Virus record (IMG/VR): IMGVR_UViG_2541047802_000010
Source of the DNA: a virus
Lineage: Duplodnaviria; Heunggongvirae; Uroviricota; Caudoviricetes
Strand: one strand, 5' to 3'
Length of the DNA stretch: 43,115 nt
A program made the position numbers and the translations under genes. The number at the start of each line of letters is the position of its first letter. The first letter of the stretch is position 1. Positions 24,390 to 27,125 of the stretch are shown one piece after another. The notes beneath the pieces are model-generated. The model saw only the letters and a program-made list of their open reading frames with translations, was not told where the DNA came from and did no database searches.

Positions 24390-27125
24390 ATGAGCACGAA
24401 ATTTAAAACCGTTATCACTACTGCCGGAGCCGCAAAGCTGGCAGCCGCCACTGTCCCCGGCGGGAAAAAAGTAAACCTGTCTGCAATGGCCGTGGGTGAC
24501 GGTAATGGCAAATTACCGGTGCCGGATGCCGGTCAGACGAAACTGGTGCATGAGGTCTGGCGTCACGCTCTGAATAAAGTCAGTGTGGATAATAAGAATA
24601 AAAACTATATTGTGGCTGAACTGGTTGTACCGCCCGAAGTGGGCGGCTTCTGGATGCGTGAGCTTGGTCTGTATGACGATGCCGGAACACTGATTGCGGT
24701 ATCCAACATGGCTGAAAGCTATAAGCCAGAACTGGCTGAAGGCTCCGGACGTGCGCAGACCTGCCGCATGGTTATTATTCTCAGCAACGTGGCGTCCGTT
24801 GAGCTGAGTATTGATGCCAGCACAGTGATGGCGACGCAGGATTACGTCGATGACAAAATCGCAGAGCATGAGCAGTCCCGCCGCCATCCTGACGCCACGC
24901 TGACAGAAAAAGGTTTTACTCAGTTAAGCAGTGCAACAAACAGCACCAGTGAAGAGCTGGCGGCAACGCCAAAAGCGGTCAAGGCAGCAAATGACAACGC
25001 AAATTCACGTCTGGCGAAAAATCAGAACGGTGCAGATATCCAGGATAAATCAGCTTTTCTGGACAATATTGGTGTTACCAGCCTGACGTTTATGAAAAAC
25101 AACGGCGAAATGCCGGTTGATGCTGATCTCAATACATTTGGTCCAGTTAAGGCTTATGTGGGTGTCTGGTATAAATCCACATCCTCCAACGCAACACTGG
25201 AGAAAAATTTCCCTGAAGACGGTGCAGTCGGTGTTCTTGAGGTATTCAATGGCGGTAATTTTTCCGGAATGCAGCGTTATACCACCAGAACTGGCAATGT
25301 TTATATGCGTAATCTTTCTGGCACCTGGAATGGCTCAGACGGTCCGTGGATCTACTGGCGTCAGATTCAGTCTGCAACACGCCCCCTGAGCACAACTATT
25401 GACCTGAACACGCTAGGAGGCGCAGAGCATCTTGGTTTATGGCGAAACAGTAGTGGCTCTATCGCTTCATTTGACCGCAACTATCCGGAAGAAGGAAGTT
25501 ATGGTCAGGGATTCCTTGAAGTTCTTGAGGGTGGTGGGTACTCACGCACGCAACGCTATACGACCCGCCGTGGGAACGTATATGTTCGCTGCCTTTCTGC
25601 TATATGGAATGCACAGAACCCACAGTGGGAGCCGTGGTCAAGAGTAGGCCATCAGTCAGAATGTCGTTATTACGAAGGTGATTTGAATGATCTGACTTCG
25701 CCAGGCATTTACAGCGTTACAGGGAAGGCGTCAAACGGTCCAATGCAGGATACCGCTGGAGCGACACTGCTTGGAATACTGGAAGTAATCAGGCGTTTTG
25801 ATGGTGTATCTGTCTGGCAGCGTTACACAACCACAGGGAAATCAGAAACCACACAGGGGCGCACTTTTGAGCGCGTCTATGCCGGGAGCAAATGGACCGA
25901 ATGGCGAGAAGTATATAACTCCTTTTCGTTGCCTCTGAATCTGGGCATCGGTGGCGCAGTGGCAAAACTATCCAGTCTGGACTGGCAGACCTACGATTTT
26001 GTGCCGGGCAGTCTGATAACCGTTCGGCTTGATAATATGACCAACATTCCCGACGGTATGGACTGGGGCGTCATTGATGGCAACCTGATAAACATCTCAG
26101 TCGGTCCGAGTGATGATTCTGGTTCGGGGCGCTCAATGCATGTATGGCGCAGCACTGTAAGTAAAGCCAACTACCGCTTTTTTATGGTGCGCATTTCAGG
26201 AAATCCGGGAAGCCGCACGATCACAACAAGACGAGTACCAATCATTGACGAAGCCCAGACATGGGGCGCGAAACAGACATTCAGTGCTGGCCTTTCTGGT
26301 GAACTGTCCGGCAATGCGGCGACAGCAACAAAGCTGAAAACAGCCCGTAAAATTAATAACGTTTCGTTTGATGGAACATCAGATATTAACCTGACGCCGA
26401 AAAATATTGGTGCATTTGCTTCAGGAAAAACAGGAGACACCGTTGCGAATGATAAAGCCGTTGGATGGAACTGGAGTAGCGGAGCCTATAACGCAACTAT
26501 TGGTGGGGCATCAACGTTAATTCTTCATTTTAATATCGGGGAAGGAAGTTGTCCCGCCGCCCAGTTTCGCGTTAATTATAAGAACGGTGGTATTTTTTAT
26601 CGTTCTGCTCGTGACGGTTACGGATTCGAGGCTGACTGGTCTGAGTTTTATACCACAACGCGAAAACCTACAGCGGGAGATGTCGGTGCACTGCCGTTAT
26701 CTGGTGGTCAATTGAATGGTGCTCTGGGTATAGGAACATCCAGTGCTCTTGGCGGTAATTCGATTGTTTTGGGTGATAATGACACGGGCTTTAAACAAAA
26801 TGGTGATGGTAATCTGGATGTTTATGCTAATAGCGTCCATGTTATGCGCTTTGTCTCCGGAAGCGTTCAAAGTAATAAAACCATAAATATTACGGGGCGT
26901 GTTAATCCCTCGGATTACGGTAACTTTGATTCCCGCTATGTGAGAGATGTCAGACTTGGCACACGTGTTGTCCAGACCATGCAGAAAGGGGTGATGTATG
27001 AGAAAGCAGGGCACGTAATTACCGGGCTTGGTATTGTCGGTGAAGTCGATGGTGATGACCCCGCAGTATTCAGACCAATACAAAAATACATCAATGGCAC
27101 ATGGTATAACGTCGCACAGGTGTAA
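24390..27125 (+). CDS. H: Tail fibre protein H, extended mosaic form (911 aa)
   Basis: N-terminus (MSTKFKTVITTAGAAKLAAATVPGG...) as in P2 gpH, then three tandem knob-like repeats of about 80 aa each sharing a QRYTT-x-x-GNVY core, then a GNAATATKLKTARKINNVSFDGTSDINL fibre-repeat motif and a divergent C-terminus. Confidence 0.85.
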   Translation: MSTKFKTVITTAGAAKLAAATVPGGKKVNLSAMAVGDGNGKLPVPDAGQTKLVHEVWRHALNKVSVDNKNKNYIVAELVVPPEVGGFWMRELGLYDDAGTLIAVSNMAESYKPELAEGSGRAQTCRMVIILSNVASVELSIDASTVMATQDYVDDKIAEHEQSRRHPDATLTEKGFTQLSSATNSTSEELAATPKAVKAANDNANSRLAKNQNGADIQDKSAFLDNIGVTSLTFMKNNGEMPVDADLNTFGPVKAYVGVWYKSTSSNATLEKNFPEDGAVGVLEVFNGGNFSGMQRYTTRTGNVYMRNLSGTWNGSDGPWIYWRQIQSATRPLSTTIDLNTLGGAEHLGLWRNSSGSIASFDRNYPEEGSYGQGFLEVLEGGGYSRTQRYTTRRGNVYVRCLSAIWNAQNPQWEPWSRVGHQSECRYYEGDLNDLTSPGIYSVTGKASNGPMQDTAGATLLGILEVIRRFDGVSVWQRYTTTGKSETTQGRTFERVYAGSKWTEWREVYNSFSLPLNLGIGGAVAKLSSLDWQTYDFVPGSLITVRLDNMTNIPDGMDWGVIDGNLINISVGPSDDSGSGRSMHVWRSTVSKANYRFFMVRISGNPGSRTITTRRVPIIDEAQTWGAKQTFSAGLSGELSGNAATATKLKTARKINNVSFDGTSDINLTPKNIGAFASGKTGDTVANDKAVGWNWSSGAYNATIGGASTLILHFNIGEGSCPAAQFRVNYKNGGIFYRSARDGYGFEADWSEFYTTTRKPTAGDVGALPLSGGQLNGALGIGTSSALGGNSIVLGDNDTGFKQNGDGNLDVYANSVHVMRFVSGSVQSNKTINITGRVNPSDYGNFDSRYVRDVRLGTRVVQTMQKGVMYEKAGHVITGLGIVGEVDGDDPAVFRPIQKYINGTWYNVAQV

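Follow-up and report, generated by a model that had tools for sequence, protein, structure and literature searches.

The closest described relative of the tail fibre studied here is gpH of L-413C (NP_839867, 913 aa), a phage of Yersinia and E. coli, which Garcia et al. (2008), as cited in PMC7460101, presented as a mosaic of four regions with P2-like ends. Fibres of the L-413C type have already served to give pyocins new targets and have been employed as a detection reagent. A second point of reference is given by the R1 and R2 pyocin fibres (6CL5 and 6CL6; Buth et al. 2018), in which diversity is highest in Knob2 and the C-terminal domain. These have been proposed as lipopolysaccharide (LPS) binding sites, about 100 angstroms apart; with two such sites the fibre would be oriented so as to trigger the baseplate (PMC6116203). 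Variants of knob 2 have also been tied to host spectrum in Pseudomonas podophages. We have analysed a stretch of 43,115 nucleotides of viral DNA (IMG/VR record IMGVR_UViG_2541047802_000010; hereafter the window) with regard to its tail fibre gene H, whose product is, by its sequence, the receptor-binding tail fibre gpH of an E. coli P2-like prophage and belongs to the long L-413C type. Neither this type of fibre nor its mosaic build nor the domain family is new. To this we add, modestly, that the three knob domains of H and its last 56 aa are, as judged from alignments, hypervariable cassettes among close alleles.

Gene H and its closest relatives

The predicted protein of 911 aa is identical to RefSeq WP_000104708.1 of E. 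coli S88, and positions 5083-43115 of the window are 99.997% identical to the S88 chromosome. H sits between baseplate gene I and chaperone gene G in the P2 order V-W-J-I-H-G, with the upstream open reading frames (ORFs) at 21928-24379, and RefSeq annotates the same order at the identical locus of S88. An earlier note on this DNA had described a 911-aa fibre H with a P2-like N-terminal anchor, and this description holds for what is a fibre of the P2 family: PF12571 matches the N-terminus with 193 bits against a cut-off of 23, and aa 1-207 are 84% identical to gpH of P2 (NP_046775, 669 aa), which occupies the same operon position. As expected from the family, the protein would form a homotrimeric fibre in virions. 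Over the whole gene, the H of Peduovirus P24B2 shows 98.4% DNA identity, and a DNA search found 28 phage records that cover at least 80% of H. Of 5426 complete E. coli genomes, 285 contain the DNA encoding the knobs; a tblastn search found the knob triplet in 230 phage records, mostly as T-even gp37 with 55-60% identity.

The H protein of L-413C is collinear with ours over its full length (81.7% identity) and has the same order of modules, with a chaperone G that is 92% identical. The two fibres differ in knob 1 (47% identity), knob 2 (69%), knob 3 (46%) and aa 511-625 (71%). P2 H is a more distant relative. Its residues 472-669 match aa 770-911 with 52% identity (E 2e-53), and its G is 89% identical to the one found here, but it lacks the whole block of aa 208-769, and a profile search of P2 H for knob domains gave no significant match. 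The hypervariable-region fibres of P88 and pro147 were also considered for comparison and set aside; in the tree of the paper describing them they are closest to P2 and Wphi H, outside the L-413C type.

Three tandem knob domains

Between positions 25110 and 25919, H contains three tandem units of ~82-88 aa that are joined by linkers of 5-7 aa, with limits set by profile alignment (Table 1); the earlier note had placed three repeats of about 80 aa roughly at 25120-25900, which is close to these limits. It had also proposed a QRYTT-x-x-GNVY core, of which the first half is found in all three copies (at aa 295, 388 and 477; nt 25272, 25551 and 25818), while GNVY is confined to copies 1 and 2 and copy 3 has QRYTTTGKSETTQGRTFER instead. 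For a pairwise test the region was cut into three pieces of ~96 aa that were compared by BLASTP. Copies 1 and 2 aligned with an E-value (E) of 7e-25 and 43-46% identity over 83-88 aa, copies 1 and 3 with E 6e-4, and copies 2 and 3 with E 0.06. Self-alignment had been set beforehand as the test that could refute the repeats, and significant internal repeats are present. Note that a self-BLAST of the whole protein returns the identity match alone, and that the repeats emerge when segment is compared with segment.

As copy 3 was weak in pairwise comparison, it was examined with profiles. A profile of copies 1 and 2 alone finds copy 3 with an independent E-value (i-E) of 8e-4, and a profile iterated on distant representatives only detects all three (Table 1). 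In a conservative version the profile was stripped of all instances of the domain that BLAST found to resemble copy 3 at all, and this purged profile still aligned copy 3 end to end, with 25.8 bits for the real sequence and a maximum of 10.7 among 5000 shuffles. Copy 3 is the most divergent of the three. At the DNA level the longest stretch common to the copies is 17 nt, and we therefore consider the triplet an old triplication at the level of the protein and no recent DNA repeat. A fourth knob was sought in aa 511-625 by profiles, with no significant match (E 0.22-0.46).

Two other explanations for the repeats were weighed. The E of 0.06 for copies 2 and 3, taken by itself, and the lack of long repeats in the DNA are what chance similarity or low-complexity matches would produce. 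This reading has practically nothing left to it in view of the match between copies 1 and 2, the agreement of all three with an independent family profile, the score of copy 3 above every shuffle, the retention of the three-domain module in more than 200 phage records and a structure model that repeats one strand pattern three times. The adjacency of the copies and their short linkers would also agree with a recent tandem duplication within the prophage lineage, by slippage or unequal crossing-over, that had newly expanded a P2 fibre. We hold this to be very improbable, as the copies are only 34-46% identical to one another and the same triplet is found in L-413C, in at least 28 peduoviruses and in T-even gp37. 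Moreover, each knob of H is closer to the T6 gp37 knob at the same position than to its own neighbours, with 61, 69 and 42% identity for knobs 1, 2 and 3 vs 34-46% between neighbouring copies. The triplication thus predates the split between P2-type and T-even fibres, and alleles move between both pools.

As judged by sequence profile and predicted fold, the repeats are pyocin-type knob domains, in agreement with the earlier note, which had called them knob-like. Close homologues carry the NCBI name 'pyocin knob domain-containing protein', which we take to come from CDD. No Pfam or NCBIfam model matches the repeats, whether they are scanned alone or within the whole protein. A family profile was assembled from 57 diverse domain instances, the three repeats among them; it matches the R2 pyocin fibre 6cl6 with E 1e-16 and the R1 pyocin fibre 6cl5 with E 1.3e-14, as well as the F2 pyocin side fibre (3.8e-6) and the P68 fibre. 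The best pyocin alignment covers the full-length domain and spans chain positions 138-208; positions 61-119 give a weaker alignment. If the numbering starts near residue 320, as we assume, the two would correspond to Knob2 and Knob1 in Buth et al. (PMC6116203). H and the pyocins have in common the signature DLN..G.Y...NYP...G.LEV...Q.YT...R...W..W. In the AlphaFold2 (AF2) model, with a predicted local distance difference test score (pLDDT) of 74.6, each repeat has five or six strands, as does a pyocin knob, which is an antiparallel beta-sheet whose strands are joined by long loops, and the top Foldseek match of the model in the PDB is 6cl5_A (E 1.5e-7, probability 1.00).

H and the R1 and R2 pyocin fibres thus share the knob family and its tandem arrangement, and both vary most in their knobs and at the C-terminus. 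The pyocins, however, have two knobs joined by a helix-plus-turn connector and end in a lectin-like foot, whereas H has three knobs on short linkers, a different shaft and a Mu/P2-type tip with a Tfa-type chaperone. The family as a whole is large, with 536 cluster representatives and 86 viral fibre models in BFVD, both at E<=1e-3. Among 147 representatives examined, one knob was found in 24, two in 48, three in 46, four in 15, five in 8 and six in 6; as a rule they follow one another in tandem, and the median length of the linker is 15 aa. One representative fibre of 1300 aa (P0040) contains two complete knob triplets, at aa 217-480 and 721-982, so that the triplet itself can be duplicated as a unit.

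Mosaic architecture of the fibre

The features of H and of its chaperone are collected in Table 1. From these matches the protein is a mosaic, with a P2-type anchor (aa 1-207), a block like T2/T6 gp37 (aa 226-688), a Mu S'-like domain (aa 671-768) and a P2/Mu-like tip. That the fibre is a mosaic, as the earlier note had it, was borne out in this way. The knob triplet is no elaboration of the P2 lineage; it sits within the 460-aa block shared with T2/T6 gp37.

Table 1. Position of gene H, its domains and chaperone gene G within the window, with the evidence for each.
Feature	Residues (aa)	Position (nt)	Strand	Evidence
Tail fibre gene H, L-413C type	1-911	24390..27125	+	ORF list of the window; PHROG tail fibre families E 1e-205; collinear with L-413C H; P24B2 H; WP_000104708.1 in E. 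coli S88
N-terminal baseplate-attachment domain	1-151	24390..24842	+	PF12571 Phage_tail_fib E 3.3e-57; 98-100% identical in six alleles
Phage tail fibre repeat 2	170-211	24897..25022	+	PF03406 E 4.6e-21; match to aa 110-176 of Mu S; likeness to P2 stops near aa 207
Knob domain 1	241-328	25110..25373	+	i-E 8e-32; AF2 block pLDDT about 75-91
Knob domain 2	334-421	25389..25652	+	i-E 1e-26; 46% identical to knob 1
Knob domain 3	429-510	25674..25919	+	i-E 3e-18; purged profile i-E 1e-7; 34% identical to knobs 1 and 2
Shaft segment	511-625	25920..26264	+	Part of the aa 226-688 match to T6 gp37, with homology to its aa 400-500 or thereabouts
Fibre junction motif SGNAATATKLKTARKINNVSFDGTSDI	626-670	26265..26399	+	Motif starts at aa 641 (nt 26310); 98-100% identical among alleles
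Mu S'-like beta domain	671-768	26400..26693	+	PDB 8ju3 (Mu S/S' chimera) domain E 4.5e-49; AF2 pLDDT about 80
gp37-type distal segment	785-857	26742..26960	+	S16 gp37 (6f45) E 3e-4; within P2 H match of aa 770-911, 52% identical
C-terminal tip cassette	856-911	26955..27122	+	C-terminus of Mu S (5yvq) E 4e-15; alleles of two types, with 98-100% or 43% identity
Tail fibre assembly chaperone G	175 aa	27129..27656	+	phrog_136 E 3e-78; 88.6% identical to P2 G; N-terminal half co-varies with H tip type

The block in question is the match of H aa 226-688 to aa 105-562 of T6 gp37 (AXN58284, 994 aa), with 52% identity and E 2e-166. It contains three knobs in the same order and the GNAATATKL motif common to both proteins. 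In H this motif is followed by the Mu S'-like domain, in keeping with the earlier note, where a T-even/Mu-type fibre repeat motif was said to lie downstream of the repeats. The junction region aligns in addition to a second site in T6 gp37, aa 63-106, with 66% identity and SGNAATATKLKTARKINNVSFDGTSDI at T6 aa 74; the residues G-N-A-T are invariant across an alignment of 40 sequences. On sequence grounds H carries a module in common with gp37 but is not a gp37. Its N-terminus is of the P2 type and would attach to the P2 baseplate, whereas T-even gp37 attaches to gp36; its neighbours are P2-type I and G, with no gp36 or gp38 genes; and where the tip of T2/T6 is the gp38 adhesin, that of H is of the Mu/P2 type and is accompanied by G.

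Three parts of H, aa 167-233, 671-768 and 836-910, match the Mu S/S' fibre (5yvq, 8ju3) with E 1e-15 to 4e-49. The solved Mu fragments are without knobs, and the N-terminal anchor of Mu differs from that of H. Two further profile matches were recorded in the distal part: a scan restricted to the C-terminal fragment (aa 671-911) finds PF12604 (gp37_C) with E 1e-5, and PF20744 matches the distal segment below its cut-off. An AF2 model of aa 501-777 has a pLDDT of about 30 at aa 501-642 and is unusable there.

The domain map, with its coordinates, is of practical value. The conserved repeat at aa 170-232 and the GNAATATKL junction are natural swap points for the engineering of P2-type fibres or R-type bacteriocins.

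The likeness to Mu raises the question of whether H belongs to an invertible host-range switch of the Mu/P1 type, with a recombinase flipping alternative tips. Residues 671-768 are indeed about 85% identical to Mu S', and a small tyrosine recombinase gene (28925-29611) lies 1.3 kb downstream, within a segment bracketed by inverted repeats. These inverted repeats, the only notable ones, are however located downstream of G, so that H and G both fall outside the bracketed segment; the window has a single tip and a single G, with no second inverted tip or chaperone copy, and the gene order is that of P2. Mu and P1 employ serine invertases, not tyrosine recombinases, and H has no counterpart of the invertible G segment of Mu. 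We therefore give a switch hardly any chance, and a role for the tyrosine recombinase was likewise rejected.

Allelic variation and recombination

The distribution of sequence differences along the fibre was studied in an alignment of six alleles, namely H of the window and those of L-413C, vB_YpM_50, P24E6b, OU784746 and P22H1. Identity is 97-100% in the anchor, in the region of GNAATATKL, in the Mu S'-like domain and at aa 769-855; the fibre-repeat linker drops to 86% and aa 511-625 to 71% in some alleles. The knobs, on the other hand, share 46-94% identity, and for the last 56 aa the figure is 98-100% in one set of alleles and 43% in the other. The earlier note had called the tip divergent. 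It is not especially so relative to P2, with 52% identity to P2 H, and it is 98-100% identical in L-413C and vB_YpM_50; the adjacent G also stays close to that of P2.

Synonymous divergence (dS) changes in the same steps. It amounts to 0.006-0.18 in the N-terminal part and in aa 626-855, and runs from 0.4 to saturation in the knobs; in the last 56 aa, too, it comes close to saturation. Wherever dS is unsaturated in the knobs, the ratio of nonsynonymous to synonymous divergence (dN/dS) is 0.07-0.25, and with a dS this high positive selection by point mutation was ruled out as a source of knob variation. From the step changes in dS and the near-identical flanks we conclude that old alleles have been imported by recombination and are kept under purifying selection, so that the recombinational shuffling of modules proposed from the letters alone is sustained by the divergence profile along the gene. 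Knob 3 is 94% identical in two alleles, among them vB_YpM_50, and 74% identical in two others, among them OU784746, at equal identities of knobs 1 and 2, and the knobs are thus replaced individually. The likeness of knob 1 to T6 suggests that temperate phages of the P2 kind and virulent T-even phages pass knob alleles to one another. Outside the predicted strands there is a modest enrichment of variable positions (58% vs 42%, Fisher p=0.014).

Two observations on single parts of the locus may be added. Knob 1 (25110-25373) is 61% identical to its T6 gp37 counterpart vs 47% to that of L-413C, and yet identity to L-413C reaches 97-100% in the flanks of the knobs. The N-terminal half of G (27129-27413) co-varies with the tip of H (26955-27122), at 94-100% vs 68-70% identity; the C-terminal half shows no such co-variation with tip type among the peduovirus alleles compared, with 80-90% identity.

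A model for the function of H and its knobs

The following account combines these data. The P2-type N-terminal domain, which would plug into the baseplate, is followed by a short fibre repeat, the three knobs, a shaft of about 115 aa, the GNAATATKL junction and the Mu S'-like beta domain, and the P2/Mu-type tip would fold with G, encoded downstream, as its chaperone. An ancient triplication gave rise to the knobs, which travel inside the block shared with T2/T6-type gp37. Among close alleles, recombination with old, diverged alleles replaces single knobs and the last 56 aa, leaving the attachment and junction parts near-identical. The order of the modules, the knob family, the mosaic boundaries and the pattern of recombination are shown by the sequences. 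By analogy with the R-type pyocins the knobs are assumed to form trimeric prisms with their sheets buried on the three-fold axis, and the outer loops might serve as lateral contact sites for saccharides of the LPS; knobs and tip together could then determine specificity and hold the fibre in position on the cell, upon which the baseplate would fire. We regard this account of modular architecture, cassette exchange and pyocin-like function as probable when taken as a whole, and its architectural part, drawn from sequence matches, as highly probable. The part played by the knobs in binding saccharides or receptors is its tentative element, which we doubt slightly more than we credit it. In the account the knobs would join the tip as candidates for specificity.

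Several points weigh against this account. Template modelling (TM) scores of the model to 6cl5 are low, 0.23-0.26, because the relative orientation of domains in a multi-domain model is arbitrary, and the model itself is a monomer of moderate confidence. The shaft at aa 511-625 has no family match and, with an AF2 pLDDT of about 30, no readable fold. The bias of variable positions towards loops, which would be indirect evidence for binding by the outer loops, is weak and rests on six alleles. The earlier note had also supposed a host range distinct from that of P2, which is conjectural: P2 vir1 and L-413C, the closest studied relative, need the same terminal N-acetylglucosamine (GlcNAc) of the Yersinia pestis LPS core (PMC3182234). 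Since P2 H has no knobs and P2 vir1 uses the same GlcNAc receptor, the knobs are dispensable for that receptor and may bind nothing.

The knobs could accordingly be purely structural, as nuclei of trimerisation or folding and as spacers of the shaft, with specificity residing in the Mu S'-like domain and the tip, and their variability would then reflect hitch-hiking or relaxed constraint on surface loops. That P2, without knobs, and L-413C, with three, depend on the same critical LPS residue of Y. pestis is in line with this, as are a knob dN/dS well under 1 and a copy number that ranges from 1 to 6 across fibres, as spacers would show. Set against it are the replacement of single knob alleles amid near-identical flanks, which is typical of specificity cassettes, and the correlation of knob 2 variation with killing or host spectrum in pyocins and Pseudomonas podophages, and we consider a purely structural role rather unlikely. 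Going beyond the cassette account as such, the knob triplet might be an independent second determinant of specificity, recognising for example outer-core or O-antigen sugars, with knobs swapped between P2-like prophages and virulent T-even phages. This is a speculative extension that we would not expect to hold; if true, the host range of both groups of phages would be set combinatorially by knob and tip alleles.

Other features of the prophage

Between G and the sheath gene, at the position of Z/fun in P2, lies an island (27709-30158) that is bracketed by inverted repeats of 33 nt (27709-27741 and 30126-30158; 82% complementary). It encodes a DUF5677 protein (28078-28920), the tyrosine recombinase already mentioned and, on the minus strand, an ORF of 129 aa (29634-30023), and a PADLOC search gave no match for any of these genes. 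The island may represent a cassette, either invertible or mobile, or else a candidate for defence.

An IS21-like element, ISEc12, is found at 13200-15780, with istA (14046-15587) and istB (13285-14034) both on the minus strand. It splits the P2-type major capsid gene N into two parts, 12785-13199 and 15781-16444, with a target duplication of 5 bp, and as it stands the prophage therefore cannot make heads. The tail, fibre and lysis genes look intact.

Two further genes may be noted. Between replication gene A and portal gene Q, the tin/old position of P2, a protein of 644 aa with a DUF7380 domain (6618-8552) matches the PADLOC candidate defence family PDC-S39 with E 1e-84. At the position of P2 orf30, between S and V, a RelA/SpoT-domain protein of 366 aa is encoded on the minus strand (20739-21839; PF04607 E 2e-21); it matches the PADLOC candidate PDC-S33 with E 1e-16 and may be a defence gene of the toxic small-alarmone-synthetase type.

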